From a virus: a stretch of 64,000 bases of DNA. The position numbers were made by a program, and so were the translations under genes. The stretch covers positions 32,001-96,000 of the IMG/VR virus record IMGVR_UViG_3300031884_000939; one strand, written 5' to 3'. This document shows positions 10,978 to 41,150 of this stretch, one piece after another. Positions within the stretch are counted from its first letter, which is position 1. Every line of letters begins with the position of its first letter. The notes under the pieces were generated by a model that was given only the letters and a program-made list of their open reading frames with translations, did not search any database and was not told the DNA's origin.

Positions 10978-13464
10978 TTATTGACCTTGGATAGACCAGT
11001 CGTAGTCTACATTAACGACAACTTTGCCTTGCTTACCATAATATGCGTATGGATCAAACTCGTCACTAGTAACTTTGATACGCTTACTACTGCCATCATC
11101 AAAATATACTGTCCAAACAAAGTATTCGCCTGGGCGCAAACTTTCATTAACTTCGTCTTTAATCAAACGCAATGCTTCTTTGCGTACTTGAATATGACCG
11201 CCGTTATCTAAGTCTACTGTATAATATCCAGGAGCGCCTTTAAATGCGCCTGGACGGATTTCTCCAATAGTGCCCATTTGTCCAGCTTCAGGACCTTTAA
11301 CAATCTTAACACGATTGCCTAAGTTCTTAGCTTCACTGATAGCTTCAGCTAACATAACATCTAGGTTTTCGATACTTTCACAATGCCATTTTCTAAGTGA
11401 TAATGCTTTACGAGTTGGCTCTCCGTTGGGCTTTTTCATAGGACCCTTCATGCCACTCATACGAGCGCAAAATGATTTGCGGCGCTTATCATCTTTACTG
11501 CCTTTTTTAATTTTACTAGGCTTTTTAGTAACAGCGGTTTGTAGTTTAGATCCAGGATGTTCTTTGCGATAAGAGTCAACACCTTTCTTGTTTAAGCCGC
11601 CGTTTTTATTCTTGCCTGATTTCTTTTGCCAAGCGGCTGTTTCGTCTACAGCTTTCTTTTTAGCAATAGCAATAGCAGCTTGTTGTGCTGGGTTAGCGGC
11701 TTCTTCAACAGATTCATTAGGCACACAGTTACGCACTCGGCCACCATTTTTGCCCTTCTTAGTTCCTTCTTCGTGTTTGCCAGGCCAACATTTGGAAAAA
11801 CCATTTGAATCTTTTTGACCTTTTTTGATTTCTGTAAATGTTTTACGAGCTGATTCATAGATAGCAGGTTTAGTAATATTGTATCCATTACGAACAGCCC
11901 ACGATAAGAAATTATCTGATTCTTCAAGTTGACCAGTTAATCCTTTGTAAGCACCTTTAACCATGTCAATTTGTTTTTGTCCAACTTGTTGCATAAATGA
12001 TTTTTTAGGTTCAGCTTTCTTAGGTGCCTTAGGAGCTGTCATTTGCTTAATAGCATATTCTTCAGCATCCTTGCGTAACTTAGCACCTTCTTCATCAGTC
12101 ATTTCACCTAATCTAGCGGCAGCCGCTTTTTTCAATTGATTAGCGTGTTTGCCGGCACCACTTTGCATTACTGACTTAGGAGCATGGGTACTTTTTCTAA
12201 GAGGTTGCGATAAAGGATTAGAGCGAACGGTCATGTTGCCATCAATGCCCTCATCTACTTCTTGATCATCGCCGTTAATTTCGTGTTCGTCACCTTTGTG
12301 TAAATCTGGATCAGGTTGACTCTTCATACCTTTAGCTTTAGCAATTAAATATGCTAATTCTTTATCACCCATTGGATTGTCTAACTCTTCCAAGCCGCCA
12401 AAACCTTGCCCTGGCTTAGGAGGATTTGGATCTGTACCTTTCCAGTATCCGCCAAACTTAGGACCATCTGGATGATGTGCGGCTGCAGCCATTGATCCTT
12501 CCTTCATGATAGGATTTAATGTAATCTTATCTGCTTTTTCTTTTTCGCCTTGGTTGTATAATTTCTTCTTCCAGTTATCGTGAAAGCGGCGAGCATCTTC
12601 ATAGTAATCAAACTGTTTAACGGACTTGCCGGCTAAACAAACTTCATATGGCTCTACTTTGTTAAAGTCTTGCCAACCTTCTACTTTAATTAATTCATCC
12701 TGGTCAGGCTCGCCTGGGGCAGAATCTTTCCATTCTTCGACTGTAGCAGGAGCTTTAGTAATACCATGTTCTTTGTTAGCTTTTTTACGCCAAGCGATAT
12801 AACTACCATTATTGTTTACACCACCACCATGCTCATCTAAGTCTGCTTTGCGAGCTCGCATAGCATTATGGCCTTTGGACCACAATAAATGTTCTGGCGA
12901 TCCTTTTGGATGCGGATTGCTATCATATGATTTACCTTTAATAGCGGCATGCATGCCAGCATCGTGCGGGCTTACTTTTAAACTTTCGTCTACATCGCGA
13001 TTTTTGTTATTGTAGAATTTTTTAATACTACGAGCACTTGTGCGTGGCTTTGGAGCAATACGATAATCTCTGCCTGGGGCTTGTTCTTTTTTGCGACGAA
13101 CTACAGCTTTAGCTTCTTCCTTGCTACCGTAAGTTCCTTCTTTAGTGCCGTCAATAAAAACTGTATATGTATAATTTGTATCTGCGTAGTCTTCTTCTAA
13201 ATCAAACGCATCTAAATTACTTTGTGCTGTTCTTTCATTATGGGCCAATGTTTCTGCGCCCGGAGCTTCATCTACTTTTAGTTTGTAATAACTGTCGCGC
13301 TCTGCTTTAGCTTTAGCGTATGCGTGACGCATAGCTTCTTTATATTTAGGATCGTTTGATTCTTTAGCACGAGCTAAAAAGTCATCCATTTTAGCATTTA
13401 AGTCTTCAATACGACGTGCTTCAAGGTCGTCGATAGCCCCTTCAAATATATCAAATAAATTCAT
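10978..13464 (-). CDS. modular putative internal head protein (RMF-like, Cys-Trp, DUF6321-like and KOW-like modules)
   Basis: MNLFDIFE N-terminus; many (L/V/I)xE(A/S/G) linkers; KCWPG...NCVP and RRKSFCARM...LRKWHC modules. Confidence 0.6.
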   Translation of the reverse strand: MNLFDIFEGAIDDLEARRIEDLNAKMDDFLARAKESNDPKYKEAMRHAYAKAKAERDSYYKLKVDEAPGAETLAHNERTAQSNLDAFDLEEDYADTNYTYTVFIDGTKEGTYGSKEEAKAVVRRKKEQAPGRDYRIAPKPRTSARSIKKFYNNKNRDVDESLKVSPHDAGMHAAIKGKSYDSNPHPKGSPEHLLWSKGHNAMRARKADLDEHGGGVNNNGSYIAWRKKANKEHGITKAPATVEEWKDSAPGEPDQDELIKVEGWQDFNKVEPYEVCLAGKSVKQFDYYEDARRFHDNWKKKLYNQGEKEKADKITLNPIMKEGSMAAAAHHPDGPKFGGYWKGTDPNPPKPGQGFGGLEELDNPMGDKELAYLIAKAKGMKSQPDPDLHKGDEHEINGDDQEVDEGIDGNMTVRSNPLSQPLRKSTHAPKSVMQSGAGKHANQLKKAAAARLGEMTDEEGAKLRKDAEEYAIKQMTAPKAPKKAEPKKSFMQQVGQKQIDMVKGAYKGLTGQLEESDNFLSWAVRNGYNITKPAIYESARKTFTEIKKGQKDSNGFSKCWPGKHEEGTKKGKNGGRVRNCVPNESVEEAANPAQQAAIAIAKKKAVDETAAWQKKSGKNKNGGLNKKGVDSYRKEHPGSKLQTAVTKKPSKIKKGSKDDKRRKSFCARMSGMKGPMKKPNGEPTRKALSLRKWHCESIENLDVMLAEAISEAKNLGNRVKIVKGPEAGQMGTIGEIRPGAFKGAPGYYTVDLDNGGHIQVRKEALRLIKDEVNESLRPGEYFVWTVYFDDGSSKRIKVTSDEFDPYAYYGKQGKVVVNVDYDWSIQGQ

Positions 13465-13465
13465 T

Positions 13466-14542
13466 CTATTTTTCTTCTATGTAATCAGCCGATTGCTCAG
13501 CGTCATGTTTGGCTTTACGACGAGCCATATACATTTCTAATGCTATTTCACATTCTTCTAAACTGCTAAAACGACTTGGTAATTCTTTGCCAGCACGTTT
13601 GATACAAAAGCCATTGCGCTCATCGCCGTGGATCTCAACTAATACAGAGCCGCCGCCACCTGAGCCAATGCCAACATCCTCGACTGGAACATTAACTGTT
13701 TTAACTGGAGCTGTTGCGCTTTCTGCGTATGTAGGATCAGTTAACCCAGCAGGCGCTTCGCCTTGTGCCGGAGTTTGATTTGGATCTTCGTCCAACTCAT
13801 TTTCGTGTTCGCCGTATTCGTCGGCATCTTCATCATCGGCGTATTGATTGTATTCAACATTAGCAGCATTAAAACTGTGTGTTCCGTGATTGTATAAATT
13901 TACAATTATAAAATTACTGCGTTGTCCAAAATCAACAATTTCGCCAGTAGCGCCGCTAAACTGTACATCGCCAATAATTTCAACTGGGTCACCAATTCGT
14001 AATTCTTGACCTTCTTCTAAACTATCAGGGATAGCTTCTTCTACATCTTGTTCTTTTTTCTTTGCTAACTCAGCACGAGTTTGTTGTGCTAACTTGTTGC
14101 CTACGCCTGTGCCTTGTTTGTTGAAGCCCGGAGGATTGCGAAACGGTTTAGCCGGAGCCGGTGTGTATGGTGCGTCGGGATCTTGATCAGCTTCGTCGAC
14201 TGATTCTTTAGACTGTAGTTCTAAATCTTTTAATTCTTTTTTCTTTAAGTCTAAGTCTTGTTTTTTCTTAGTAATTAAATCTTTGTCTTGTTTGAGTGAA
14301 TCTTCTGCTGATTTTAAATAATCAACTAAACTTGCTTTAACTTTTGATAGTACATCGTCTGACTTCTCTTCGGCAAACTCAACACCACCGACACCAGGAG
14401 TAAAATCCTCTTCGGCTTTTTTTAAATTATTAAAGAGTGCTGGTTTCTTCTGTTTAGATTCAGCAATATGCTCATGCTTAGGAGCTATGCGCCCCTCAAG
14501 TATGGCTAATTTTTCTACAATACTATAAAAGTTATGGTCCAT
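13466..14542 (-). CDS. acidic modular putative internal head protein with KOW/SH3-like module
   Basis: ILEG, IAES, VDEA, VEEA, LEEG linkers; LRIGDPVEIIG...GATGEIV. Confidence 0.55.
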   Translation of the reverse strand: MDHNFYSIVEKLAILEGRIAPKHEHIAESKQKKPALFNNLKKAEEDFTPGVGGVEFAEEKSDDVLSKVKASLVDYLKSAEDSLKQDKDLITKKKQDLDLKKKELKDLELQSKESVDEADQDPDAPYTPAPAKPFRNPPGFNKQGTGVGNKLAQQTRAELAKKKEQDVEEAIPDSLEEGQELRIGDPVEIIGDVQFSGATGEIVDFGQRSNFIIVNLYNHGTHSFNAANVEYNQYADDEDADEYGEHENELDEDPNQTPAQGEAPAGLTDPTYAESATAPVKTVNVPVEDVGIGSGGGGSVLVEIHGDERNGFCIKRAGKELPSRFSSLEECEIALEMYMARRKAKHDAEQSADYIEEK

Positions 14543-14982
14543 TATGCTCTAGCTTCTTTCAAAAAACTTTGTAGCATCCAGATAAACTTGTTTGTGGCAG
14601 TTAATCTTTCAGCGATAAAATTTGCGATATCTTGCTTGTTCTCTGCTGTAGCAGCCGCAAAACATTCATTAAGAAGGTTGATCATAACATGGGAATCAGC
14701 TAGTAATTCCTCAAGCATGAGTTGTGCTCTAGGCACTTTAGTTTGGTCTTGAATACGGGATAACTCGTTATAACGAGTAAGGCTAGCAGGAGTGTATTCT
14801 CCCAGGGTGCGGATAAACTCCCCGAGCGGGTCAACGGCAGAATATGCGTCCTCATACACTTTTTGTAGGAATTTATGATATTGATAGAAGTCTTTGCCTT
14901 CTACATTAAAATGAAAGAAATGGGCTTTTAAGTAATAAGCGAAGTCACTCGCGAGTAAAATTTTCATCAATTCAGCCAGCAT
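14542..14982 (-). CDS. dps: Dps ferritin-like DNA-protection protein
   Basis: KAHFFHFNVEGKDFYQYHKFL...D.LGEFIR...WML; TAAATA upstream. Confidence 0.9.
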   Translation of the reverse strand: MLAELMKILLASDFAYYLKAHFFHFNVEGKDFYQYHKFLQKVYEDAYSAVDPLGEFIRTLGEYTPASLTRYNELSRIQDQTKVPRAQLMLEELLADSHVMINLLNECFAAATAENKQDIANFIAERLTATNKFIWMLQSFLKEARA

Positions 14983-15019
14983 TTTAAATCCTTTAAATTA
15001 TATATTATTTAGTTAAAAC

Positions 15020-15087
15020 TAAATAGAAGTGTAGTTCGCGGATCTCGACAATCCCAACTACTCTAACGCTTATAAGGAGCAATCAGC
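15020..15087 (+). promoter_or_regulatory. late promoter plus structured RNA leader of HNH gene (copy A)
   Basis: TAAATA, GTAGTT/AACTAC stem with inner GGAT/ATCC, TCTAAC linker, hairpin over AAGGAG. Confidence 0.7.
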
Positions 15088-15669
15088 ATGAGTATTTACA
15101 GAAAAGATAGCTACCATCGTAAAATATACGAGGATCACTATGGGCCAATTCCAAAAGATTCAGAAGGTCGTAGCTACGAAATACATCATATAGACGGAAA
15201 TCACGAAAATAACAACATTGATAATCTTCTCTGTGTAAGCATACAGGAACATTATAATATACACTATTCTCAAGGAGATTTCAAGGCTTGCCTTATAATG
15301 TCTAAAAGAATGGACATTTCTCCGGAAGAAAAATCGAGGCTAGCAAAAATAACTAACGCAGGCAAAAACAATCCAAGTTATGGGATTTATTGGTGGACTA
15401 ATGGAGTTGAAGAAAAGAAATCAAAAACTCAACCGGGACCAGAATGGACTCGCGGAAGATCTGCTATATTAAAAACTCGTGTATCGTCTACTATAGTTAA
15501 AAAGGATATTCGAGCAGGGGCAAAAAATACAAGTTATGGAAAATATTGGTGGACTAACGGAATAGATAGCATTAAATCAGATAAGTGCCCAGAGGGATAT
15601 TACAGAGGGGTAGGAGAAATACAGAGAATGAAGTCAAGAAATAAGTTGGCTAAATCTTGGATTTTTTAG
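15088..15669 (+). CDS. free-standing HNH homing endonuclease
   Basis: EIHHIDGNHENNNIDNL...EHYNIH; two YWWTNG DNA-binding repeats; antisense to neighbours. Confidence 0.9.
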   Translation: MSIYRKDSYHRKIYEDHYGPIPKDSEGRSYEIHHIDGNHENNNIDNLLCVSIQEHYNIHYSQGDFKACLIMSKRMDISPEEKSRLAKITNAGKNNPSYGIYWWTNGVEEKKSKTQPGPEWTRGRSAILKTRVSSTIVKKDIRAGAKNTSYGKYWWTNGIDSIKSDKCPEGYYRGVGEIQRMKSRNKLAKSWIF

Positions 15670-15862
15670 TTGATTTGTATGCTTTATATTCTTTAGGAGT
15701 ATTAGGAGTAAGATCGTTAGTTTCGACACCTGTAAAGAATGAGCCCTGGGGTATTCTTCGCTGTACGGCTCCTAGAGGAGTAGCCACGGGCGCAATACTT
15801 CCTGCGCTAGTACTAGCTACACTGGCGTCTTCTTTTAACCCTATAATTTCAAATAGTTTCAT
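15650..15862 (-). CDS. small putative internal head protein
   Basis: MKLFEII...LKEDAS N-terminus shared with the flanking modular proteins. Confidence 0.55.
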   Translation of the reverse strand: MKLFEIIGLKEDASVASTSAGSIAPVATPLGAVQRRIPQGSFFTGVETNDLTPNTPKEYKAYKSTKKSKI

Positions 15863-16146
15863 TCTAAAATCCTAAATTTTAAGTTATCTATAACTGCTCC
15901 GGGCCCGTATTCTACTTTTAAACTTTTAACATTTAGTTGGGCTAAATGCGGGGCAACTAACTCATAGCGTAACGTGTATTCACCCGGTTCGGCACTAATT
16001 TGTAAATCTTCTTCCAAAGCACTATCAGTCCAAATCCATGTACGTTCTGCAAATAATTCGTCATTAACATACAAACGATAGATAGGACTTAATCCTTCCC
16101 AATCGCAGTCAATATTACTCAGTATACGCACAAATTTTTTGCTCAT
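15859..16146 (-). CDS. hypothetical protein
   Basis: 95-aa ORF with TAAATA directly upstream. Confidence 0.7.
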   Translation of the reverse strand: MSKKFVRILSNIDCDWEGLSPIYRLYVNDELFAERTWIWTDSALEEDLQISAEPGEYTLRYELVAPHLAQLNVKSLKVEYGPGAVIDNLKFRILE

Positions 16147-16164
16147 ACTGTATTTAGCGGAATT

Positions 16165-17970
16165 TTATTTAGGTGCGGCAACTAATCGAACATTCTGTGC
16201 GATATCGCCTCTGTAGCCGTGTGTTGATTCAGGGTCATCTGCCCCGGTATTGATAGGTTTGTTAGTTTTCATATTAAATGCGTAAACATTTAATGAACGC
16301 CCATAACGTTGTTCTAAATCTTGCCATACTCTTTGGCCGCCTGGGGATTGATATTTGTCACTAACTAGCGTAAGCCCTTGGTTTTTAACCAACCAAGCAT
16401 ACAAATCTGCGGCACGAATAGGAGCTTTAGGACCTCCATATATACCAAATATTTCAAATGAATGTGGTTTGTTTGTTCCGCTAATGGTCATTTGACTAAC
16501 GCGAGTTTTAGGATCAAAAACGGAGTAAGCAGAATCGTTACCCTTGTCCCACTTATATACTTCTAACTGTCCTAAGTTCCCTACTAAGTTACCAAGTAAA
16601 CGTTTTTCTTTACCTGGAGGCACTGGTTCGCCTTTGTTTACTAAACCTGACTTGTCTTGATTTTTAGTTTTGATATTGTTATGATAAATCACTTCACTTA
16701 ACTCTCGTTCTTTATTTACGCGAGCCATATGCTGATCATATGTTTCTTCATCATCGTCTGACTCTAAGGGAACATAAGCTGGCATAGAAGTCATACCCAT
16801 ATCTCTAGCAGCCACAGCTCTGTGGTTGCCGTCAATAATCCAGCCTTCATTATCTACTACAATAGGTTTATTTTTAATGTCTTGTGCTGTAATATCTTTA
16901 ACATAATTGTAGTCAACTAAGTTGATTTGATCGTACGGACTAACTTCATCTGAATCTATATGTAAACTAGTTAGAGGTACCGTAGTGAGTTCCCATTTAG
17001 CATGATTCATTACAGCATGGTCTATAGTAAATTCATCTTTAGGATGTATTTTTTTAACATAAGACAATATTTCTTTGTTACTTTCTTCGCTGACTGGTTC
17101 CCATGACATTGGTTTAGCACCTTTAGCGACGGGTTTAAAACCATGACGCTTATATAACTTAGTTAATGAGGCTTGACTTACATTACCCTTAGCCCAAGGA
17201 TACAATGTTAACTTAATACCCGCTTCTTGTGCTTGACGCTGTAGCTCTTTAATAGCACGACTACCAACACCTTTGCGTTGTTCGGGCCCGGCCATGATCC
17301 AATCTATTTCTACTGTATCAGGTTTCATACTAGGTTTGAGTTTGAACGCGGCAAATTGCTGATCTTCGCCTTCTCCCCATACCATAACTTTATCTGCTTG
17401 ACCATACGGCCAATCAGGATACTGACTATATACCCTGTCAATAAATTCTTGTGCTTTATTTGATTCTACAGCTTCATTTAAATTTTTTTTTAAAAAAGTA
17501 TCGGCTAACTTTTTACACAGTAATTTAATCTTGCTATTTTCTGTAATAATGATTGTAAACTTTTCTTGGGTATTATCTTGTGATGGATCACTATACCCGC
17601 AATAAGCTAATTTGATATGTTTTTCATTTAATAAATCTGTACAGCTAACGCCATAGCGATTATCGCCAGTATCTTCACAGCATGGGCTCAGTGTAGTAAT
17701 TACAATACTGCCCTTTGGCAATTCTCCGTACTCTTCTTCATACTTGTCTATGGCTGCTCGTTCCGCATGGATTCTTGAATTTCCATATAGATAATTTACA
17801 CCAGTGACTAATCTACCCCGAGTATCTAATACCGCGGCGGCTACCATACCATAAAAGTCTGGATTATCTTGTTGTCCTTCGATGACCATATCGCAAAGCT
17901 CAACAAGAACTGCGTCTAGTTTTTCACGACTAAACTTTAGTTTAGGTTGGATAAAATCGTTTAAAATCAT
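16165..17970 (-). CDS. polyvalent protein: deaminase-like + GNAT + ParB/Srx-like + second GNAT-like domain
   Basis: HAE...LSPCC...C; QRKGVGSR...LYKRHGF; IIDGNHR; QSPGGQRVW; domains separated by LNEA/VESN, VSEES and LSEV. Confidence 0.8.
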   Translation of the reverse strand: MILNDFIQPKLKFSREKLDAVLVELCDMVIEGQQDNPDFYGMVAAAVLDTRGRLVTGVNYLYGNSRIHAERAAIDKYEEEYGELPKGSIVITTLSPCCEDTGDNRYGVSCTDLLNEKHIKLAYCGYSDPSQDNTQEKFTIIITENSKIKLLCKKLADTFLKKNLNEAVESNKAQEFIDRVYSQYPDWPYGQADKVMVWGEGEDQQFAAFKLKPSMKPDTVEIDWIMAGPEQRKGVGSRAIKELQRQAQEAGIKLTLYPWAKGNVSQASLTKLYKRHGFKPVAKGAKPMSWEPVSEESNKEILSYVKKIHPKDEFTIDHAVMNHAKWELTTVPLTSLHIDSDEVSPYDQINLVDYNYVKDITAQDIKNKPIVVDNEGWIIDGNHRAVAARDMGMTSMPAYVPLESDDDEETYDQHMARVNKERELSEVIYHNNIKTKNQDKSGLVNKGEPVPPGKEKRLLGNLVGNLGQLEVYKWDKGNDSAYSVFDPKTRVSQMTISGTNKPHSFEIFGIYGGPKAPIRAADLYAWLVKNQGLTLVSDKYQSPGGQRVWQDLEQRYGRSLNVYAFNMKTNKPINTGADDPESTHGYRGDIAQNVRLVAAPK

Positions 17971-17971
17971 T

Positions 17972-19312
17972 TTAGTGGAACATTAGGAAACTGTTGATTA
18001 CATCCAATCTGTTGGCAGCACGGTCTCCGTGTCCTGCTGGAAATATAACCACATTCCACTTAGGTTTAGGGCCTTCAGGGATGGTTAACATCTGATCGTA
18101 TGTGATAATTGATGCTGGATCAATTTTATATCTAGTGGCCAACATTTTTTTAAATTCTTCCCATGCTTCGGGACTTTTAACCTGTGTACGACCTTTGGCA
18201 TCTTTAACATATTTCCCTTTAGCATCCGTAACAAACAATGTGCGGAACAAGTCTTTGGGTAATGTTACAGCATCTTTAACTGCATTTCCTTGAGCTTTGT
18301 GTAGTTCAATTTGCTTTTCTTCACCGCGCTTACTTCCCGAACTAAAGTTAACAATAAAATTATCTGGTTTGTTGGCAGTTGCAGCCGCGGCTATTTTTGT
18401 ATAAGCATAAAATTTTACATCTGGATTAGTACGAGCAACGTTAAATGCTAGATCTAAATATTCTTTACTAAAGAAATCTCCAGCATCATGCCAGCGTACA
18501 ACTAATCTAATACCATGCTTGTCTGCTTTGCCTTTAAGACCTTGTATTTCTTTGTTAACCATGGCCATATATCCAGCAGGGTCATTGACTAAAAAGTTTA
18601 ATGCTTGTGCGGCTGACATGCTACTAGCAGGGAACATTACATATCCACCTTTACGAGCGTAGCAAAATAATTGACATCCGCCAGCACCAGGGCAAGTAGT
18701 AATTTCTACAAAATCGCCTGTTTCCTCGTCCACAACAACACCGCTTAATGCTGGCAATGTTAAGTCATAAACAATTTCGCCTTCTGTAGCACTCTTACTC
18801 ATTTTAGCATTAGTGCCTAATAATGAACGAGGACGGGTAGTGATTTGACGGGCCAAATCATCTAAATCCCATTCGGTACCTTCGTCATCTTTAGTAATTG
18901 CTTTGATATTGCTACCGTGTATGATTGGAGCAAATCTATCTTTCTTTGTCTTAGTACCAGTTTTAATACGATCGGCATAGCCTTGTAACTCATCGCGACT
19001 CATTCGGCGATGTGGAGCATTTAACCCAATAGCTTCATTTGTAATTTCTTCTACATTTAAAATTTTAGCCCCGGGGTGGTGAATCTCAACTTTATGTTGT
19101 GCGATTCGTGCGCTCTGAGCTTTGACCTTAAAATGTTTTGTGACACCGTATATATTTGCTGTAATTCTAAATTGTTTATTAAATTGGCCGGCTGCTAATA
19201 ACCCACTAATGTCAGATTCTTCAACACCTTGATCTTCAATATGTAACGGAGTGACTTTAAATCCACCTAGTGTTGTTTGTGCAGATTCAAAGATAAATTC
19301 ATGGGCTTTCAT
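17972..19312 (-). CDS. GP88-like Cys-cluster (radical-SAM-like) protein with N-terminal modules
   Basis: TCPGAGGCQLFCYARKG, VRWHDAGDF, FYAYTK; MKAHEFIFE N-terminus. Confidence 0.7.
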   Translation of the reverse strand: MKAHEFIFESAQTTLGGFKVTPLHIEDQGVEESDISGLLAAGQFNKQFRITANIYGVTKHFKVKAQSARIAQHKVEIHHPGAKILNVEEITNEAIGLNAPHRRMSRDELQGYADRIKTGTKTKKDRFAPIIHGSNIKAITKDDEGTEWDLDDLARQITTRPRSLLGTNAKMSKSATEGEIVYDLTLPALSGVVVDEETGDFVEITTCPGAGGCQLFCYARKGGYVMFPASSMSAAQALNFLVNDPAGYMAMVNKEIQGLKGKADKHGIRLVVRWHDAGDFFSKEYLDLAFNVARTNPDVKFYAYTKIAAAATANKPDNFIVNFSSGSKRGEEKQIELHKAQGNAVKDAVTLPKDLFRTLFVTDAKGKYVKDAKGRTQVKSPEAWEEFKKMLATRYKIDPASIITYDQMLTIPEGPKPKWNVVIFPAGHGDRAANRLDVINSFLMFH

Positions 19313-20787
19313 TAATACGTCCTTTTAAATAATTCTAATTCTTCCATCATCCGATGGACGATGCCATCTGGACGAAGTTCTTGTGGTTTACCTTGTGCGT
19401 CGGTGTCTAATAAAAATGCATTAGCACAACGACCAATTTCTCCTGGACGCACATCAACAGTTAGCGCCATTAAGAAGCGTGGATCTTTTGCTTCTGCGGC
19501 TGTTGGAATATAGCCCGTAGCTTCATTTAATTCGATAGCCATAAACAATTCAGGATGTAGTTGAGCATACTTACGCATCAATACACCAGCTTTGGCATTA
19601 GCTTCATTTTCATATGGACTGCCATCTTCTCCAGCGTCTGCTGGAACTGGTCCTATTTCATTTTGTTTTTGATGTACAAGTTCGTGTGCTACAGTTCTTA
19701 ATACATCCATAATATGACGGCCGCCTACACCAACTTCAAGTTCATTGGTTCCATCATTGTAGCGTCCAAAAGTTTTGTTTCTTACGGACCATTGTGGGTC
19801 ACGACGAATTCTTAAGTTAATTTCTTTTTTTAATTTTAAATGGGAAACACAAAAATTAATAAAATCTTCAATAATGTCTTTGTCATTATGTTTGTCTTCG
19901 TTAGCAAACATACAAGTACTAGGATTGGTTCCGTCTGGAGTAACACCAACTTCATCTAATTGTGCTTCGTTGGTAAACTCGGAAGTAGTAGGATTAGTAC
20001 CGTCTGGTGTAATGCCAACTTCTTCGATATAGTCAGGACCAAAACCATATTTTACAGGAGCTTGTGGCTTACGCTCTTTTAAACTTAACTCTTGGCTTCT
20101 TGCTTCTTTACGAGCATTATGTAACTTTTTCAATTCACCACTATTGCGTAGTAATTTGAAGGCTAAATTTTCTGGGCCAAACTCGCCGTGATTAGCTAGT
20201 CCTGTACCACGCATATTTTTAATTTTATCTAATAGAGCATTCATTTGGTCTATAGATTTAGATTTAATTGCTTGTTTAATACGCTTACTTAAATCCTTGT
20301 ATTTGCTCTTAACGCTCATATCATCGATATCAGCGTGTTTGCGTCTAGGAATTTGTATCCATTCGTTATCTACAATACTGTAAATTCCTTGACTATGATG
20401 TTCTTCGCTTATGTCCTGTACATACAATTCAACAGGAATACCTTTAATAGTAATTTTATGTTCGTTGTTATAGATAAACTTTTTAGCATCAAAAAGTTCA
20501 CGATATATTTCTTTGTTTTCGTCATTGCCTAAATCTACAATTAAATGTAAATCTATATCAGAATGTGGAGTATAAGAAAATGCGGCATTACTACCCGAAC
20601 TTGTTATATCTTTTAAATTTAAGTTGTCGACGCCAAGTGATTCAGCAAAGTCTGAAGCAATAGCTAATAACTGCTCACGGATTTCAGGATGTAAATGTTC
20701 GCTTTTATCCCATAATAAAGGATTAAGTTTATCGTGAAATTTAACTGCGTCTGCTAAATTGAAGGATTCTAATTGTTCAATGTTCAT
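19312..20787 (-). CDS. Pol-beta-type nucleotidyltransferase fused to zincin-like metallopeptidase
   Basis: GSNA...SDIDLH and VELYVQD; AHELVH...YENEANA; start placed at MNIEQ just after TAAATA. Confidence 0.75.
   Translation of the reverse strand: MNIEQLESFNLADAVKFHDKLNPLLWDKSEHLHPEIREQLLAIASDFAESLGVDNLNLKDITSSGSNAAFSYTPHSDIDLHLIVDLGNDENKEIYRELFDAKKFIYNNEHKITIKGIPVELYVQDISEEHHSQGIYSIVDNEWIQIPRRKHADIDDMSVKSKYKDLSKRIKQAIKSKSIDQMNALLDKIKNMRGTGLANHGEFGPENLAFKLLRNSGELKKLHNARKEARSQELSLKERKPQAPVKYGFGPDYIEEVGITPDGTNPTTSEFTNEAQLDEVGVTPDGTNPSTCMFANEDKHNDKDIIEDFINFCVSHLKLKKEINLRIRRDPQWSVRNKTFGRYNDGTNELEVGVGGRHIMDVLRTVAHELVHQKQNEIGPVPADAGEDGSPYENEANAKAGVLMRKYAQLHPELFMAIELNEATGYIPTAAEAKDPRFLMALTVDVRPGEIGRCANAFLLDTDAQGKPQELRPDGIVHRMMEELELFKRTY
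19903..20028 (-). repeat. tandem duplicated peptide module EVG(I/V)TPDGTNP(T/S)T..F.NE
   Basis: Two copies visible in protein and DNA. Confidence 0.8.
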
Positions 20788-20802
20788 TAATATATTTAGC
20801 GT

Positions 20803-20840
20803 AAAAAACAAAAGCCGTTACAGACTTAACTGTAACGGCC
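20803..20840 (-). terminator. intrinsic terminator
   Basis: 10-bp stem GCCGTTACAG/CTGTAACGGC followed by a U-rich tract. Confidence 0.85.
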
Positions 20841-20865
20841 TTTGCCCGTTTATAAACTACCCAGT

Positions 20866-21801
20866 TTATTTTTTCTTTTTGCCTTTGCTTGAAGCAACTA
20901 CAGTAGCTTTAGGAGCTTCTGGTGCTGCTACAGGAGCGTCAGATACAGCGGCTGCCTGTGCTTGGGCTGGTAATGACTGTGCTGGTTGCTGATTACTAAT
21001 AGCCAAAGAATGTAAGTCTTTGTATAGTTGATCTTGTGTAGCATAGTCAAATACATAGGTGCCTGTGTGCTTGAGCAATACACGCTTGTCTACCCAAACT
21101 TTACCACCTAAATCACGCCAGTTTTCGCAGAATGTCCAGTCTTCACTGTAATAACGATTCTCGCGAACTGCTGTGTCAAAATATGTTTTCATATAAACAT
21201 TTAACTCTGGTGGCAAACCAATATCAGAGTTGAAAGGCTTAACTGCTGGGTGGGCATTTAACTTCTCAAATACGCCACGCTTCATTAAGAGGAATCCTGT
21301 GCCAGTTTTAGTAACTTCTTGTAAGCCATCTGGGCCTTCTTCGGCACCGTCAAATCCATTAACACACCACTTAACTGGTAAGGATTTCATTGGATACAAA
21401 CCGCCAATAACATCTACGTCACGATTTAACATAACGAGCAAGTGCCATGGCTCCCAACCGATGTCAGCATCGATAAACATTAAGTGTGTTGAATCTGGGT
21501 TAGAAAGGAACTTAGCAGTAAGAGTATTACGAGCACGACTAATCAATGACTCATTGGTCATAGTTTCCATAGTCCAATCAATGCCTAATTGACGGGCTGT
21601 ATTTGCCCATTTAATGTAGCTCATAAATGTAGATTCAGTAAGCATACCACCATAACAAGGCATACAAATATGTACACGGGTAGTTTTTAAGTAATCAATG
21701 TTGATTTGCACTTGGCCTGCTTGTGGAGCTGACGGTGCTTGTGCTGTTGGGGTAGCTGCTTCTGTGGTTGCATCTAGGTTAGTTTGTTGGGTTGATACCA
21801 T
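20866..21801 (-). CDS. GT-A fold glycosyltransferase-like protein
   Basis: ESLISRARN, LMFIDADIGW (DxD), GTGFLL, SEDWTFC. Confidence 0.75.
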   Translation of the reverse strand: MVSTQQTNLDATTEAATPTAQAPSAPQAGQVQINIDYLKTTRVHICMPCYGGMLTESTFMSYIKWANTARQLGIDWTMETMTNESLISRARNTLTAKFLSNPDSTHLMFIDADIGWEPWHLLVMLNRDVDVIGGLYPMKSLPVKWCVNGFDGAEEGPDGLQEVTKTGTGFLLMKRGVFEKLNAHPAVKPFNSDIGLPPELNVYMKTYFDTAVRENRYYSEDWTFCENWRDLGGKVWVDKRVLLKHTGTYVFDYATQDQLYKDLHSLAISNQQPAQSLPAQAQAAAVSDAPVAAPEAPKATVVASSKGKKKK

Positions 21802-21847
21802 GGGTTCCTCTTATAAATGTGTAACATATTTACACGAGTAAGGAGAC

Positions 21848-22786
21848 CTAGTAAAATTTTCTGTCGTCTAATTGAATATAAACTTCGTTAATAGGAATAG
21901 CTATTTGATTGTTTTTTATTATAGATTTAAATCGCTTATTTGTTACATCAGGATCTAGTCCAAAATACCTAGCCATATCTTGTTGGGTAGCTATTCTAAG
22001 ATCCATAATCTTTTCAAATCCATGATATTTAATTCGCGGAGTTGTGTGTGGAAAATGTGATCTCATCATAATTGTTTTAGCAGGCACATCGATTGACCCT
22101 GATTTTAATATGTAAGGATTGTTTATTAACATCTGATTAACAGGATCTTGAAGATATGCGCTATGTATTTCTGATGTTGTTTGATAGAAAAATACGCTGT
22201 GATTTAAACTATTTTTCCTACACCATTCTAACGGAGCAAGTGAGCCGATATCGTAGGTATCGCATACAGGATCATTATTTGGATCAACTTCATTATATAT
22301 TTTTTGTTCTAACCCTAGCCCAGCACTTTTGCCACCAAAAATACCAAATCCATTCATATCTTCTATGTGCTGTAATAGTTCAATTGTATAGTATCTAAAA
22401 ACATTATTCGACACAAGATTTTGATTAAGATATTTCTTGTAGCCTTCTTTTAAAAAAGACAGCATATCAAATTCAAAAAATTTGTACTCAACCTTATTTG
22501 CTTCGCACCAACTAATAGCGTAACTTATATCGTGTGTGTTTAAATCGTCTGGAAATTTGGCAATCAATGCCTTGAAAGGAATATTTGCGTTTTTAAATGT
22601 GCTAGCAACAACTTCACTATCAATCCCGCCAGACATACATACCCAAATATCTTTAGTGGTCGATTCTGCTATAGTGGTAGCAGCAATTTTAATTTCTTCA
22701 ATCCAAGATAATGGTTTTCTAACACAAGGTGAGTACCAAATTTTGAAGGCAATAGGATCGTAATTTATACCAAAACTTTTATACAT
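21848..22786 (-). CDS. second PP-loop ATP pyrophosphatase-like protein
   Basis: CMSGGIDSE; C-terminal RIKYHGFE. Confidence 0.65.
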   Translation of the reverse strand: MYKSFGINYDPIAFKIWYSPCVRKPLSWIEEIKIAATTIAESTTKDIWVCMSGGIDSEVVASTFKNANIPFKALIAKFPDDLNTHDISYAISWCEANKVEYKFFEFDMLSFLKEGYKKYLNQNLVSNNVFRYYTIELLQHIEDMNGFGIFGGKSAGLGLEQKIYNEVDPNNDPVCDTYDIGSLAPLEWCRKNSLNHSVFFYQTTSEIHSAYLQDPVNQMLINNPYILKSGSIDVPAKTIMMRSHFPHTTPRIKYHGFEKIMDLRIATQQDMARYFGLDPDVTNKRFKSIIKNNQIAIPINEVYIQLDDRKFY

Positions 22787-22795
22787 TATTTGTTT

Positions 22796-23614
22796 TTAAT
22801 AAAATTTTCGACCAGTTTTTTCGTCGATGAAATTAGGAATTAAATCTTCTTCAAAACTTCTATAGCAATGTGCGGCGGTGCGTTCTGCTAGAATTGTTGA
22901 CTCTAATAATTTTGCTAACTTGGCTCTATGTTGTTTACTTTCATTGCGTACTACTGGCATAGGTTGATCAATTACATCGCCGTCAAGGTCAGGCTGTTGA
23001 ATTACTATGTCGCGAGCTTTTTGTGCTACGCCTAATTTCTTATCAAATAATTGTTGTAGGGCAGTATCATCAGTACCATATAAGTCATGTAAGATTTGTT
23101 TACGATCCGCTTCGCTACCATTAGAATACATATTGCGTATTGCTGAAGCAGAGTCAGCATCTTTGCCTCTAACTTTAAATGTAACAGTTGGAGTAACCAT
23201 TACATAAGCGTGTTTGGTCAACGGTTGAAGTTTGCCATCTTTAGGATAAGGTTGCATATAACTTGGCTCACCGTTCTTTTTAACACCAAACTTGAAGCGT
23301 GGATTTTCGCCCATGTCTTTTTCTGATACAGCAAACACTAACGCAGTATTTTCTGGATCTGGAATATCTTTTGTAATTTCTTGTGCTTGATAAGGATTGC
23401 GTACTTGTACAATGTGACTAGCAGGTATTCCTATTTTTGTAAGCATCTCTACTTTGTCAGCAAAACTAAAGGGATTTGTCACAGGAGCAGTTACATCAGA
23501 AGTAGCTACATACACATTTTCAGCACCAAATTTCTTAGCTAGATAATCGTAGCTAGACTTATGACCTTTGTGGCCAGGCTGAAATCTTCCGGGATATATT
23601 ACAACTGTACGCAT
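22796..23614 (-). CDS. HxGH nucleotidyltransferase (cytidylyltransferase-like)
   Basis: YPGRFQPGHKGH, NPFSF, SASAIR; TAAATA upstream. Confidence 0.75.
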   Translation of the reverse strand: MRTVVIYPGRFQPGHKGHKSSYDYLAKKFGAENVYVATSDVTAPVTNPFSFADKVEMLTKIGIPASHIVQVRNPYQAQEITKDIPDPENTALVFAVSEKDMGENPRFKFGVKKNGEPSYMQPYPKDGKLQPLTKHAYVMVTPTVTFKVRGKDADSASAIRNMYSNGSEADRKQILHDLYGTDDTALQQLFDKKLGVAQKARDIVIQQPDLDGDVIDQPMPVVRNESKQHRAKLAKLLESTILAERTAAHCYRSFEEDLIPNFIDEKTGRKFY

Positions 23615-24010: not shown

Positions 24011-24730
24011 TTATGCTGGGATGATTTCCAGCGTTTTTCTAATTATACCAGGGGATATAAGCTCTAGCATAACTAGCCAGCCTTCCCCATCGTGATCTAT
24101 AAAGAAATAATCTTGGGTCCGCAAATAAGGGGACTTTGATAGCCATTTAGCAAAAGCCGGAGCAACTCTTATAGTATCTTGTTGATTATTAAAAAAGTTA
24201 ATTAAACTGTCTTTATTAGCTTGTGTTAGTTTTACGCTTTTAAAATAACTTCTGTGGGTAAACTTAGGAACTTTTAATTTAACAGTATTTTTAGGTCTCG
24301 ATATTATAGCTTCTGTATATTCCTTATTGTCAAGGAAACTCATAGCATTAAGTCTTTTAAGTAAAGACATATTGTTACTGTATATCCAACCCAAGTTAAC
24401 CGATGTAACTAATTTAAAATCAGCGGTTGTTGTAAGTAGTAACTCAGCTAATTCGTGAAGATCCTCAGAAGTTTTATCAGTAATATCTTTCCAACGCCTT
24501 GTTAATATAGTTTGAGCTAGTTGAGGTTGGCCGCCGGGACGAACTAAAGTCCAACGCTGTTGTGCGACTTCTCGCCACAACTTTCTACGATCAATAATAG
24601 CATCGATATAGTTGTGGTCGAGAGTCTTCATAGCACTTACTTCATCTAAAGCAAATGCTACGCAGTATCGATATTTGTCGTAAAAGTATCTATCTTTATC
24701 GACAGGCTTAAACGTTAGGAGATTCGCCAT
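24011..24730 (-). CDS. hypothetical protein
   Basis: Long ORF overlapping the end of clpA. Confidence 0.7.
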   Translation of the reverse strand: MANLLTFKPVDKDRYFYDKYRYCVAFALDEVSAMKTLDHNYIDAIIDRRKLWREVAQQRWTLVRPGGQPQLAQTILTRRWKDITDKTSEDLHELAELLLTTTADFKLVTSVNLGWIYSNNMSLLKRLNAMSFLDNKEYTEAIISRPKNTVKLKVPKFTHRSYFKSVKLTQANKDSLINFFNNQQDTIRVAPAFAKWLSKSPYLRTQDYFFIDHDGEGWLVMLELISPGIIRKTLEIIPA

Positions 24731-26987
24731 CAAGAACAATAATACCAGAATTGTCTACAATCGCCAATGGAGCAGTTTGGATAATTGTAAAATCAATCTT
24801 ATCATCGATTATGATAGCATTGACGGTGCAGTCAGATAAGCGTTCAAACAAAATCTTCTTAGACAAAGGTACACGAATCAATTCGTCAATCTTACGATTA
24901 AGTGGACGAGCACCCATCTTAGGATCATAACCTTTATCAGCTAGCATATCAATAACTGCTTCGGATAAATTAAGTCTAATATTTTTATTGTTCAAACTAA
25001 CTTGTAACTGTTCAACAAATTTAAGTACAACTTTCTTAATAGCAAGGGTATCAAGTTTCTTAAACTTACAAATTTGATCGATACGATTACGCAACTCAGG
25101 TTTGAAGAAGTCCTTCATTGCTTTATCTTCTGATCCTGTTTTTTGTAGTGCTTGACCAAATCCAATGTTATTGTTTTCGTTATCGCGAGCACCTAAGTTA
25201 CTTGTCATAATGATAATAGTATTCTTAAGGTTAACAGTTTTGCCGTTAGCACTAGTAATACGAGCTTCGTCTAACATCTGTAACATAATGTTAATAACAT
25301 CAGGGTGAGCTTTTTCAATTTCATCAAACAGGATGATTGAATACGGATTCTTACTAATATCACTGATTAACTTGCCGCCACCTACATTGCCATCTTCAAA
25401 TCCTACATATCCTGGAGGCGCACCAATCAACGAACTTACAGTATGCTTTTCTTGATATTCTGACATATCATACTTTAATAATTGCATATCTAAGTTTGTA
25501 GCTAGTAACTTAGCAAGTTCTGTTTTACCAGTACCAGTTGGTCCTAAGAATAAGAAACTAGCAATAGGACGATTGTCGTTGCCAATACCAGAAAAGTTAA
25601 TATAAACTCGCTCAAGTACGCTGTCTACTGCTTCGTCCTGACCATATAATTTTTCTTTAATATTCGATTCAAGTTCTACAATATTAGCTGAACGCTCGTT
25701 TTGTAATCGATCCATAGGAACTTCAGTAACACGACTTAATTGTTCCATAATCATTTCTTTAGTAATAGTTACATTACCTTGATCCTTAACTCGTTCCTTA
25801 GCGCAAGCGCCGTCTAACAAGTCAATACTCTTATCTGGATTCTTACGGTCGTGTATATAACGACCTGATAAATCTACAGCGGCCGTGATAGCATCTGTAT
25901 CAATTAATACATTGTGGAATGATTCTAAGCGTGGGCTAAGTCCAATAAGGATTTGTTCTGTAACTTCGTTAGTTGGTTCATCGATACTTACACGATGGAA
26001 ACGACGCATTAACGCACGATCCTTTTCAAAGGACTCGTAGTATTCTTCCCATGTTGTACTTGCGATTACCTTAAGTTTACCTTTAGTAATAGCAGGTTTT
26101 AACATATTAGCAAAGTCAAGTGTAGATTGTGAGCTAGCGCCAGCACCTTTCATAGTGTGTGCTTCGTCTACAAACAAAATACAATTACCTTTAGTTTCTA
26201 ATGCGCCAATAACTTGTTTGAACTTTTCTTCAAATTCGCCGCGATATTTAGAACCAGCTAACAATGATCCAATCTCTAATGCCCATACTTCATGAGCAAT
26301 TAAGAACTTAGGAACACGATTATTAATAATCTCTTGAGCTAGGCCTTCTGCGATAGCAGTTTTACCTACCCCGGGATCTCCAACCATCAATACATTAGCT
26401 TTAAATTTACGAGCTAATACTGTAATCATTTCATCAAGTTCAGCACCGCGGCCAATCATTGGCTCAAGGCGATCTTCTACCGCCATCTTAGTTAAGTTAA
26501 CACAGTATTCAGTTAAAATTTCATCTGCTTGCGTAGTTGTAAGAACTACATCATCATGTTTGTAGTGTGCTTGCCAGTATTCCATGAACTCTTGTTTCTT
26601 AACACCATACTTTAATAAAAAGTAATGTGCGTGTGAATTATTTTCAGCCATCATAGCAAGATACAAGTCGCCAGTATTCATTGAACGGCGCCCTGTGAAC
26701 AATACTTGTGTCATTGCTCTGTTGAAGCAACGCTCGAGAGCATTTGTTTTCTTAGGCTGATTGTCTTTTTTAGTAGTAACCAAACTAGTTAAACTTTGTA
26801 AGTAAGCATCTAACTCCATATCTAATAAATCTACACTAGTCCCAAAAGATTCTAGTACTTTATAAAATGGAGCATGGCGTATTAATACCAATAAGACGTG
26901 CTCAGTTAAAACATATTCGTGTTGACGCTCTTTAGCCAATTTAACAGCTTGGGCGACGATTTGTTCGATTTCTTTATTGTTTTGCAT
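24708..26987 (-). CDS. clpA: ClpA-type Hsp100 AAA+ chaperone
   Basis: Clp N-domain; Walker A GDPGVGKT and GPTGTGKT; IGF ClpP-docking loop; no ClpB middle domain. Confidence 0.92.
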   Translation of the reverse strand: MQNNKEIEQIVAQAVKLAKERQHEYVLTEHVLLVLIRHAPFYKVLESFGTSVDLLDMELDAYLQSLTSLVTTKKDNQPKKTNALERCFNRAMTQVLFTGRRSMNTGDLYLAMMAENNSHAHYFLLKYGVKKQEFMEYWQAHYKHDDVVLTTTQADEILTEYCVNLTKMAVEDRLEPMIGRGAELDEMITVLARKFKANVLMVGDPGVGKTAIAEGLAQEIINNRVPKFLIAHEVWALEIGSLLAGSKYRGEFEEKFKQVIGALETKGNCILFVDEAHTMKGAGASSQSTLDFANMLKPAITKGKLKVIASTTWEEYYESFEKDRALMRRFHRVSIDEPTNEVTEQILIGLSPRLESFHNVLIDTDAITAAVDLSGRYIHDRKNPDKSIDLLDGACAKERVKDQGNVTITKEMIMEQLSRVTEVPMDRLQNERSANIVELESNIKEKLYGQDEAVDSVLERVYINFSGIGNDNRPIASFLFLGPTGTGKTELAKLLATNLDMQLLKYDMSEYQEKHTVSSLIGAPPGYVGFEDGNVGGGKLISDISKNPYSIILFDEIEKAHPDVINIMLQMLDEARITSANGKTVNLKNTIIIMTSNLGARDNENNNIGFGQALQKTGSEDKAMKDFFKPELRNRIDQICKFKKLDTLAIKKVVLKFVEQLQVSLNNKNIRLNLSEAVIDMLADKGYDPKMGARPLNRKIDELIRVPLSKKILFERLSDCTVNAIIIDDKIDFTIIQTAPLAIVDNSGIIVLDGESPNV

Positions 26988-27050
26988 GTTTTCCTTTGCT
27001 TGGTACTAGTTAAGTATATAGCATTACTAAACAAAATACAATGATTATGG

Positions 27051-27845
27051 TTACTTCTTTTGTGCTTCTTTGATAAGATTGGTTAGTTCGTCACTTAGGC
27101 TAGATGGCATTTTGGCATGAATTCTAACTAATAAATCGCCAACAGGTCCTTGGCGTGAAGCTAGTCCTCTACCTTTCAGACGCAATAGTCCGCCTGGCTG
27201 TGTTAACGGTGGAATGGTTAAAGTTAATTGGTTACCCAAAATATCTTTTACTTCTGTTTCTCCGCCAACTAAACAATCCCAAATAGATACTTGCTGGTCC
27301 ATTGTTAAGTTTAATCCTTGGCGATGCCATTTTGGATGTTGATGTATTCTAAAATTAACAATTAAATCTGTGTTACCAGGACCTATGCCAGGATATTGAA
27401 TATTATCGCCATCGTTAAGTCCCAATGGGATTTCTATTTCAATTGTCATTGAGCCTTGCTGTGTACCTACAGTAACAGGCCGCTTGCCGCCTTGTGCTAC
27501 ATCTTGTAATGTTACCCATAAGCTCATTCTGGTATGGGTTTGTCGTTGCTGTCCTGGATGTTGATGCCCTGGATGAAACTGTGCGCCAAACATACTAAAG
27601 ATATTGTTAAAATCGAACCCGCCACCATTAAATTCAAAATGTATATTTTGATTAGGATTATCGTATTGGGCTCGTTTACTAGGATCGCTTAATGTTTCAT
27701 AAGCCGACTGAACCGATTGAAATTTAGCTTTATCGCCACCTTCGCGGTCTGGATGATACTTTGCCGCCATACGGCGATATGCTTTTTTAATATCGTCAGC
27801 AGACGCATTACGGTCTACTCCTAAGGTTTGATAGTGATCTGTCAT
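27051..27845 (-). CDS. DnaJ/CbpA-type co-chaperone without zinc finger
   Basis: J-domain with HPD, G/F-rich linker, C-terminal substrate domain; ATGA overlap with the upstream stop. Confidence 0.9.
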
Positions 27846-41097: not shown

Positions 41098-41150
41098 TCT
41101 TAGTATCCTTGAATATGCTATTATTTAGCTAATTTGATAACTGTTTAAAA

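Follow-up and report, generated by a model that had tools for sequence, protein, structure and literature searches.

A hypervariable locus of putative capsid-targeted cargo proteins, jointed by head-protease-type sites, in an uncultured jumbo phage

Gene content of the locus

We analysed a 64,000-nucleotide stretch of viral DNA, hereafter the window, which corresponds to bases 32001-96000 of the 158,513-bp linear IMG/VR virus contig IMGVR_UViG_3300031884_000939 (completeness approximately 45% by CheckV). The minus strand carries nearly all genes. Its family-B DNA polymerase (5878-8538) shares 50% identity with that of Sinorhizobium phage Phosso and 47% with that of Agrobacterium phage Atu_ph07, which makes this uncultured lake phage a T4-core jumbo phage. 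Our subject is a block of genes at approximately 10978-20787, several of whose products begin with a short leader resembling the capsid-targeting sequence (CTS) of phage T4 and consist of modules that meet at hydrophobic-x-Glu motifs, here called joints. Among the related viral contigs used for comparison (L and G numbers), G006 is a complete relative of 364,404 bp with terminal repeats, whose DNA polymerase is 80% identical to that of the window. The principal features are listed below in window positions, with a slash marking a predicted cut.

10978..13464, minus strand: 828-amino-acid (aa) mosaic polyprotein with leader MNLFDIFE/G, about 14 small modules and joints of the V[DE]E, L[DE]E and VNE type (Pfam, PHROG, site counts, AlphaFold)
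13441..13464, minus strand: CTS-like leader of the 828-aa protein, MNLFDIFE, predicted to be cut after Glu8; the same leader heads most of the 120 homologues listed
13466..14542, minus strand: acidic 358-aa protein, start MDHNFYSIVEKLAILE/G, with 5 strict sites (site counts; shared module)
16165..17970, minus strand: 601-aa fusion of a cytidine-deaminase fold (1-166), GNAT (167-295), ParB/Srx-like (296-426) and C-terminal domain (427-601) (Pfam and PHROG)
17473..17481, 17086..17094 and 16693..16701, minus strand: joints LNE (residues 164-166), VSE (293-295) and LSE (424-426) of the 601-aa protein, where relatives end or switch a module
17972..19312, minus strand: 446-aa protein with leader MKAHEFIFE/S, a conserved 23-aa piece to VEE/ and a mobile 57-aa module to VEE/ (listed boundary site at 87-89), then a GP88 domain (Pfam)
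19312..20787, minus strand: 491-aa protein (start MNIEQLE) with a Pol-beta-type nucleotidyltransferase up to LKE (244-246), a tandem pair of spacer units that both end in xE, an HExxH (HELVHQ) domain, an LNE joint and a C-terminal piece (phrog_36119, E 1e-48)

The last of these was first recorded as a 499-aa open reading frame (ORF), the real start at MNIEQLE giving the 491-aa protein.

N-terminal leaders

An earlier note on this DNA had singled out five N-termini as capsid-targeting-like. All five exist on the minus strand: MNLFDIFE at 13464, MKLFEIIGLKE at 15862, MILNDFI at 17970, MKAHEFIFE at 19312 and MNIEQLE at 20787. By sequence comparison, three of them (MNLFDIFE/G, MKLFEIIGLKE/D and MKAHEFIFE/S) are convincing as leaders, being short predicted propeptides that end in hydrophobic-x-Glu and resemble the T4 CTS, MKTYQEFIAE, fusion to which leads to packaging of a protein. 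The remaining two did not hold up as well. MNIEQLE aligns with the start of stand-alone cyanophage nucleotidyltransferases and is therefore part of that fold, not a detachable leader, whilst MILNDFI lacks a closing Glu, is doubtful as a leader and may be helix 1 of the deaminase.

The syntenic blocks of the relatives are hypervariable and most of their genes begin M-[KR]-x-x-E-[FIL]-[ILV]-x-E; the overall leader consensus is M-[KRN]-x-x-[ED]-[FIL]-[FILV]-x-E. Leaders such as MRAQEFIAE, MRAREFITE, MKANEFLTE and MRAKEFVTE are found on more than 15 unrelated protein families, and MRAREFITE and MRAQEFIAE also head two small G006 proteins located among tail/baseplate genes. Using a leader regular expression devised after the data were seen, we recovered 16/38 block genes of the relatives and 9/673 other ORFs (Fisher 2e-16). 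Moreover, 70 of the 120 listed homologues of the 828-aa protein begin with a strict leader. Leaders on unrelated genes use different codons and are preceded by unrelated DNA; therefore it is the peptide that is conserved.

Joint motifs and their placement

Close to twenty [LIV]xE(A/S/G) linkers had been claimed for the 828-aa protein. We found 10 strict [LIV]xE[ASG] sites against 2.13 expected, a number reached in 0/300 shuffles, whereas 19 sites are obtained only with the relaxed motif [LIVMF]xE, mostly as V[DE]E, L[DE]E or VNE. The 358-aa protein contains 5 strict sites against 1.74 expected from shuffles. As a positive control the same test was applied to T4 gp22, the scaffold protein that gp21 cuts at many sites, which gave 10 strict sites against 2.39 expected, and the scaffold of G006, the most site-enriched of 446 ORFs, gave 9 against 1.95. 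In the homologues of the 828-aa protein (120 listed of 585) there are 693 [LIV]xE[ASG] sites against 205 expected, a 3.4-fold enrichment.

The sites also lie where modules meet, in line with the earlier note: internal BLAST segment ends fell within 3 residues of a site in 11/32 cases, against 4.15 expected (P=0.0016). An AlphaFold2 model of the 828-aa protein, built from a 50-sequence alignment (mean predicted local distance difference test score, pLDDT, 65.5), has the form of beads on a string, with blocks of pLDDT >90 at residues 11-60, 101-140, 271-320 and 781-820. Linkers with pLDDT <50 make up 32% of the chain and hold 13 of the 18 internal sites (P=6e-4), and 27/65 of all Glu residues of the protein lie in such segments. 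Foldseek returned no match at E<=0.001 for the whole model against PDB, and the small modules are therefore without a fold assignment.

The 10-residue sequence behind a leader in one protein also occurs inside other proteins. Amongst the 120 listed homologues, 143 of 192 distinct internal copies are directly preceded by [LIVMF]xE, against a per-position background of 2.3%; the other copies mostly miss by one residue. Examples of sequences shared between post-leader and post-joint positions are TAAWQKK..., IKKGQKDSNG... and AANPAQQAAIAIAKKK. Leader ends and internal joints are therefore interchangeable, as they should be if a single protease generates an identical mature N-terminus from both. 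The residues and codons of the window's joints vary, but the hydrophobic P3 and the Glu at P1 are kept. In the 877-aa polyprotein of L008 (11775-14408), ten (Q/E)GVAE/G joints share nearly the same 15 nucleotides, GGT GTG GCG GAA GGC; therefore the joints probably double as recombination microhomology.

Three mosaic relatives (the L008 chain and proteins P0073 and P0092) carry a twin-arginine (Tat) signal, RRGFLKGL..., 3-4 residues past a joint and hundreds of residues into the protein. The L008 segment (residues 490-510, RRGFLKGLAGAG...) matches Pfam TAT_signal at 24.3 bits, above the family cut-off. Tat signals work only at an N-terminus and therefore an internal one could act only after cleavage of the joint. 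From these residues, the arrangement suggests that some released modules may be exported to the periplasm.

The 828-aa and 358-aa chains

One search returned 585 metagenomic homologues of the 828-aa protein with query coverages of 7-69%, and the family is therefore a mosaic. The identical protein was also found on a 235,812-bp contig. Residues 617-693 form a DUF6321 domain (PF19846; 76 bits against a cut-off of 28.5), a KOW-like module is present, and a WWNGDE module occurs in both the GP88 and the 828-aa families. Many of the modules are basic, the DUF6321 module carrying a net charge of +18, and a large number of pieces measure just 20-60 residues. The L008 chain also contains a module of the 358-aa protein (residues ~178-250). 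The 828-aa and 358-aa proteins may be internal, DNA-coating or core proteins rather than effectors.

Ribosome modulation factor (PF04957, cut-off 27.9 bits) did not reach its threshold in either the 828-aa protein (19.1 bits) or a 611-aa protein of G006 (17.2 bits). These two independent sub-threshold matches, at residues 168-204 of the former (12853-12963; E 1.4e-3) and 344-385 of the latter (E 5e-3), are each framed by joints, and the segment may be a ribosome-silencing cargo module, judging from its similarity. Separately, Synechococcus phage ACG-2014f (L117 724-3243) encodes an 839-aa Lys-rich protein next to the large terminase, which has DUF6321 and Cys-knuckle mini-modules in common with the 828-aa family and bears no CTS-like leader.

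Exchange of modules among relatives

We compared module order among relatives and found modules inserted, deleted, moved between proteins or split into leader-bearing genes exactly at Glu-ending joints, in agreement with the shuffling proposed in the earlier note. Of all our lines of evidence, this comparison is the strongest. In the 601-aa fusion (deaminase, E 4e-8; GNAT, E 1.5e-4; ParB-like PHROG, E 3e-6) the points at which relatives split the protein coincide with LNE166, VSE295 and LSE426. L003 encodes deaminase plus GNAT as 291 aa followed by a 200-aa gene starting MRFFEIARIP; the counterparts in L004 are of 222, 280 and 197 aa, and those in L005 of 218, 242, 320 and 264 aa, where the ParB module is a gene of its own with the leader MKIKELLVE/N.

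Homologues of the 446-aa protein from eleven viral contigs differ by insertions and deletions of whole modules, the edges of which lie exactly at Glu joints. The window has ...DQGVEE/ followed by the 57-aa module and ...NVEE/ITNEAIGLNAP, whereas L004 and L005 have ...DQDVDE/AIGLNAP. L006 and L007 contain a different module between VQE/ and LSE/AIKLNAP, and L010 and L011, 47% identical, read VDE/AKLGG and VEE/AKLSG. The Glu preceding the mature GP88 domain is invariant in 7/7 sequences down to 47% identity, despite unrelated modules upstream. Moreover, the 57-aa module recurs in the L008 chain. The domain itself (PF17338) is assigned at E 3e-35 and 122.5 bits against a cut-off of 24.4, and seven homologues share an invariant CX5CX3C motif of three cysteines and RWHDAGDF. 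A clustered-protein look-up with the GP88 part returned only GP88 clusters.

The LNE joint of the 491-aa protein (19522-19530; residues 428-430 in the 499-aa numbering) is the exact site of insertions of 70 and 217 aa in the homologues of L003 and L004. In G006 the homologue forms the first 491 residues of a 1389-aa protein that includes an amidoligase domain, and L009 encodes the HExxH domain apart, with a leader of its own.

The payload listed in the earlier note stands for the deaminase, the GNAT acetyltransferase, the ParB-like domain, the GP88 domain with its three invariant cysteines and the Pol-beta nucleotidyltransferase. The metallopeptidase fared less well: a HELVHQ...ENEAN motif is visible in the 491-aa protein, but no Pfam or NCBIfam peptidase family matched at E<=0.01. 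The NCBIfam scan gave nothing further for the cargo proteins. GP88 would be a putative Fe-S enzyme by virtue of the three invariant cysteines only.

The head protease and promoters

A Peptidase_S77 gene of the T4 gp21 type was found in 5/5 larger related contigs tested, namely the complete genome G006 and G008, G009, G010 and G011. It was not found in five smaller related fragments, which says nothing because these are only 8-28% complete. In G006 the protease (262533-263171; E 2e-24) adjoins the scaffold gene, and the head genes are in T4 order: portal, a 72-aa protein, an acidic 293-aa core protein (MNKFEQLIE/Y), Peptidase_S77, scaffold and major capsid protein.

Late-type boxes with the sequence CTAAATA stand in front of the operons of the block.

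20793..20799, minus strand: CTAAATA box 5 nucleotides ahead of the 491-446-601 operon; a terminator-like hairpin with T-run (~20805-20850) comes before it
15006..15012, minus strand: CTAAATA box upstream of the operon formed by a Dps/ferritin-like gene and the 358-aa and 828-aa genes
16151..16172, minus strand: two CTAAATA boxes upstream of a pair of genes for 95-aa and 70-aa proteins

The same box lies 0-26 nucleotides upstream of tail-fibre-like genes, at 41128, 50321, 66633 and 73880. By consensus match only, CTAAATA appears to serve this phage as its late -10 box. We considered TATAAATA, the T4 late box, for this role and rejected it: it is depleted in the window (3 against 11.6 expected), and CTAAATA is the box in front of structural genes. 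Outside the window, the contig region G000:C1:109902-111029 (minus strand) holds a gene for a 375-aa protein with CTAAATA upstream and a leader-like start, MRLFEFQDEQLNE/G (MRLFEFQDE).

Interpretation and alternatives

We consider it probable that the genes at approximately 10978-20787 form a hypervariable locus of CTS-addressed cargo, jointed by sites for the head protease. Under this model the block genes would be transcribed late, from the CTAAATA promoters, and the leader would take the precursors into the core of the assembling prohead, the role that the CTS plays in T4 for IPI-III and Alt. A gp21-type serine protease (Peptidase_S77), active only within the prohead, would then cut after the Glu of exposed hydrophobic-x-Glu joints, removing the leader and separating the modules. 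The freed modules would remain with the DNA and accompany it into the next host; they would comprise small basic proteins from the 828-aa chain as well as deaminase, GNAT, ParB/Srx-like, GP88, nucleotidyltransferase and HExxH domains. Since the same short joint frames every module, recombination could shift, lose, join or divide modules and leave processing intact, which would make a shufflable kit. Capsid targeting and cutting by the prohead protease had been proposed in the earlier note, and all the computational tests run agree with it; from them we infer targeting, packaging, cleavage by a gp21-type protease, retention in the head, injection and the roles of the modules in the host. A broader idea, to which we hold more tentatively, is that of a lineage-wide, evolvable, plug-and-play platform in uncultured jumbo phages. 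Here the head-protease motif would be both cut site and recombination joint, any module would be loaded, released and injected once it lay between two joints downstream of a CTS-type leader, and some modules would then use newly exposed N-terminal signals, such as Tat, to reach other compartments of the host.

Several observations weigh against the cargo-locus model. The case for packaging and cleavage is indirect. Neither the prohead protease nor the major capsid gene was found on the 158-kb contig, because the contig is a fragment, and the block itself is placed between replication and chaperone genes, outside the head module. The 601-, 446- and 499-aa proteins show no overall enrichment of the motif in the shuffle test, although the few sites that they have sit on domain boundaries. 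Two of the five leaders first proposed are doubtful, some of our other tests were, like the leader expression, devised after the data were seen, and orthologues are not independent. The identity of the L008 joints at the DNA level means that part of the pattern may reflect recombination and not selection for cleavage. No cultured relative was found: a megablast of the block and a tblastn of the 601-aa protein gave zero matches amongst 50,697 phage records, in which the 446-aa protein had only distant GP88-domain matches, in Streptomyces and archaeal phages. Moreover, Atu_ph07, the nearest cultured phage by polymerase, has no leader-bearing block in the syntenic interval from DnaJ-ClpB to DNA polymerase.

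The absence of overall enrichment in the enzyme-bearing proteins, the setting of the block among replication and chaperone genes and the near-identical DNA of the GVAE/G joints in L008, as recombination joints would have, are all in line with ordinary cytoplasmic multidomain proteins of the polyvalent style. Such proteins would never be cut by a head protease; their joints would be acidic flexible linkers or recombination scars, and their common N-terminus would serve translation initiation or another purpose, AT-rich N-terminal codons being common in highly expressed genes. We regard this as unlikely, though it is the alternative that we take most seriously. The joints of the window vary in residues and codons yet keep the hydrophobic P3 and the Glu at P1, leaders differ in codons and in upstream DNA, and the motif density of the 828-aa protein equals that of T4 gp22. 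Moreover, the same modules come after a leader end or a joint (143/192), and a Tat signal just past a joint would be senseless without cleavage. Alternatively, the joints could be cut in the cytoplasm by another Glu-specific protease, either the phage HExxH domain or a host enzyme, to yield equal amounts of many small proteins with no delivery by the capsid. We give this little credence. The block does encode an HExxH domain (HELVHQ in the 491-aa protein, a leader-bearing gene of its own in L009), and Iyer et al. 2017 (PMC5512222) predict that embedded peptidases release polyvalent domains. However, that region matches no peptidase family, most members of the mosaic family are without a peptidase domain of their own, the leader matches the T4 CTS, and the site rule of hydrophobic-x-Glu plus a small residue is that of gp21-type proteases, common to the G006 scaffold and T4 gp22.

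Another alternative accepts targeting and cutting but treats the 828-aa and 358-aa proteins as sacrificial parts of the prohead core or scaffold in a phage with a very large head; they would be degraded and expelled, not delivered as effectors. Their scaffold-like motif density, the many pieces of just 20-60 residues and the very acidic 358-aa protein, reminiscent of core proteins of the T4 gp67/gp68 type, would fit. We nevertheless judge it improbable, as several modules are confidently folded (pLDDT >90), conserved and mobile between proteins, many are strongly basic (DUF6321, +18) like the DNA-bound internal proteins of T4, and enzyme domains have the same leaders and joints. It is very improbable that the shared N-terminus is instead a tag for a modifying enzyme, of the kind seen with radical S-adenosylmethionine (radical-SAM) enzymes and ribosomally synthesised and post-translationally modified peptides, or for the phage Clp machinery (ClpB and, it appears, ClpS, ClpX and ClpP on the contig), and not a capsid address. 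ClpB and DnaJ do lie directly upstream of the block, but Atu_ph07 retains DnaJ-ClpB without any such block. A radical-SAM gene lies inside the G006 block, but it belongs to a plus-strand insertion not present in the window, whose block contains no radical-SAM or SPASM gene. A tag would also leave unexplained the internal joints and their equivalence to leader ends.

Comparison with known systems

T-even internal proteins are a diverse defence set with only the CTS in common, and those of T4 are lysine-rich and DNA-bound (PMC3012670). Propeptides of the CTS type are removed by gp21, which cleaves behind the Glu of motifs that include ITE-6 and LTE-619 in Alt (PMC5694885). The system described here resembles IPI, IPII, IPIII and Alt in its N-terminal propeptide of 6-20 residues ending in hydrophobic-x-Glu, in diverse and fast-changing cargo that shares only the leader, in genes located outside the head module and in the T4-type protease of its clade. 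In T4, however, one protein receives one cut (two in Alt), whereas here, known from sequences alone, up to ~14-19 modules would be chained per precursor, the cutting motif is a recurring joint, and modules alternate between fused and separately tagged forms. The multi-cut design is instead that of the T4 prohead proteins gp22, gp67 and gp68, with N-termini such as MLKE/QLIAE/ and MEGLIE/ and an equal [LIV]xE[ASG] enrichment (gp22, 10/2.39; 828-aa protein, 10/2.13). Those scaffold proteins are helical, degraded to peptides and expelled, whereas the folded and basic modules of the 828-aa chain are conserved and pass from one protein to another.

Polyvalent proteins (Iyer, Burroughs, Anand, de Souza and Aravind 2017, PMC5512222) combine GNAT, nucleotidyltransferase, ParB and zincin domains and are predicted to be packaged and then released by embedded peptidases. 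Several conflict-type domains of that repertoire (GNAT, Pol-beta nucleotidyltransferase, ParB, a putative zincin-like peptidase and, in G006, amidoligase) occur together in single polypeptides here too, at least two of them in both the 601-aa protein (deaminase, GNAT, ParB-like) and the 491-aa protein (nucleotidyltransferase and HExxH). In contrast, our HExxH region has no family match and many of our chains are made of tiny non-enzymatic modules; a keyword reading of that paper turned up neither a T4 CTS-type leader nor fixed head-protease joints between domains. The Dar system of phage P1 (DarA, DarB, DdrB, Hdf) is similar in that the anti-restriction proteins are packaged in the head, in some cases with processing beforehand or in the course of packaging, and are injected together with the DNA (PMC5512222). 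It lacks a CTS-type leader and any repeated joint motif, and its packaging hierarchy is different.

In the phiKZ-like giant phages SPN3US and phiKZ, many head-internal proteins are cut by a gp21-related protease after the Glu of a three-residue motif, some at several sites, with targeting ascribed to conserved N-terminal propeptides (PMC5694885). These phages are of a different lineage, with (A/S/G)-x-E motifs and propeptides of more than 100 residues, and motif-joined shuffled chains are not described there. A literature search with incomplete coverage of the field returned no paper that describes chains of shuffled cargo with head-protease motifs as their universal joint. Overall, what the earlier note observed is confirmed, and its reading as packaged, protease-cut cargo is partly supported.

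If the cargo-locus model is true, the three-protein CTS trick of T4 would extend to a general, modular delivery of many proteins with the DNA in large uncultured phages, and the leader together with hydrophobic-x-Glu joints would provide a simple sequence rule for reading virion cargo from metagenomes. Hundreds of hypothetical mosaic proteins (585 matches for one query) would become candidate injected factors, amongst them enzymes against host defences, proteins that coat DNA and possibly modules that silence ribosomes or are directed to the periplasm. Exchange at joints would explain how such kits evolve, and natural leaders and linkers would be at hand for packaging foreign proteins in phage capsids.

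Other genes of the region

The remaining genes of the block are as follows.

14542..14982, minus strand: Dps/ferritin-like protein, no leader, first gene of the Dps-358-828 operon (Pfam Ferritin, E 6.5e-17; phrog_3636)
15650..15862, minus strand: 70-aa protein with leader MKLFEIIGLKE/D (MRLHEFVNLQE or MRLYEIVGLQE in relatives)
15859..16146, minus strand: conserved 95-aa protein, no leader, translationally coupled to the 70-aa gene

The Dps/ferritin-like gene is conserved in the blocks of all relatives, and its place as a member of the system is uncertain. An HNH-type endonuclease gene (15088-15669, plus strand) lies between the Dps-358-828 operon and the 95-aa/70-aa pair, with a 20-base overlap with the end of the 70-aa ORF.

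The earlier note had extended the arsenal to 23614. The three genes at 20866-23614, which encode proteins of 311, 312 and 272 aa (phrog_1574, a NadE-like PP-loop protein and an NMNAT-like cytidylyltransferase), have neither leader nor joints, show no sign of membership and are probably outside the system. Beyond them lie ClpB and DnaJ (24708-27863, minus strand). Genes for DnaK, ClpX, ClpP, ClpS, GroES and a small heat-shock protein are apparently present elsewhere on the contig, judging from N-terminal sequences alone, and such a chaperone and protease set would be unusually complete. At 21848-23614 (minus strand) the 272-aa NMNAT-like adenylyltransferase adjoins the 312-aa NadE-like protein with its SGGIDS motif, and the two may be a phage NAD+ salvage pair. 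In other phages of the family an NMNAT-like module stands directly behind a leader (MFLSQLFES/..GRFNPPHKGH).

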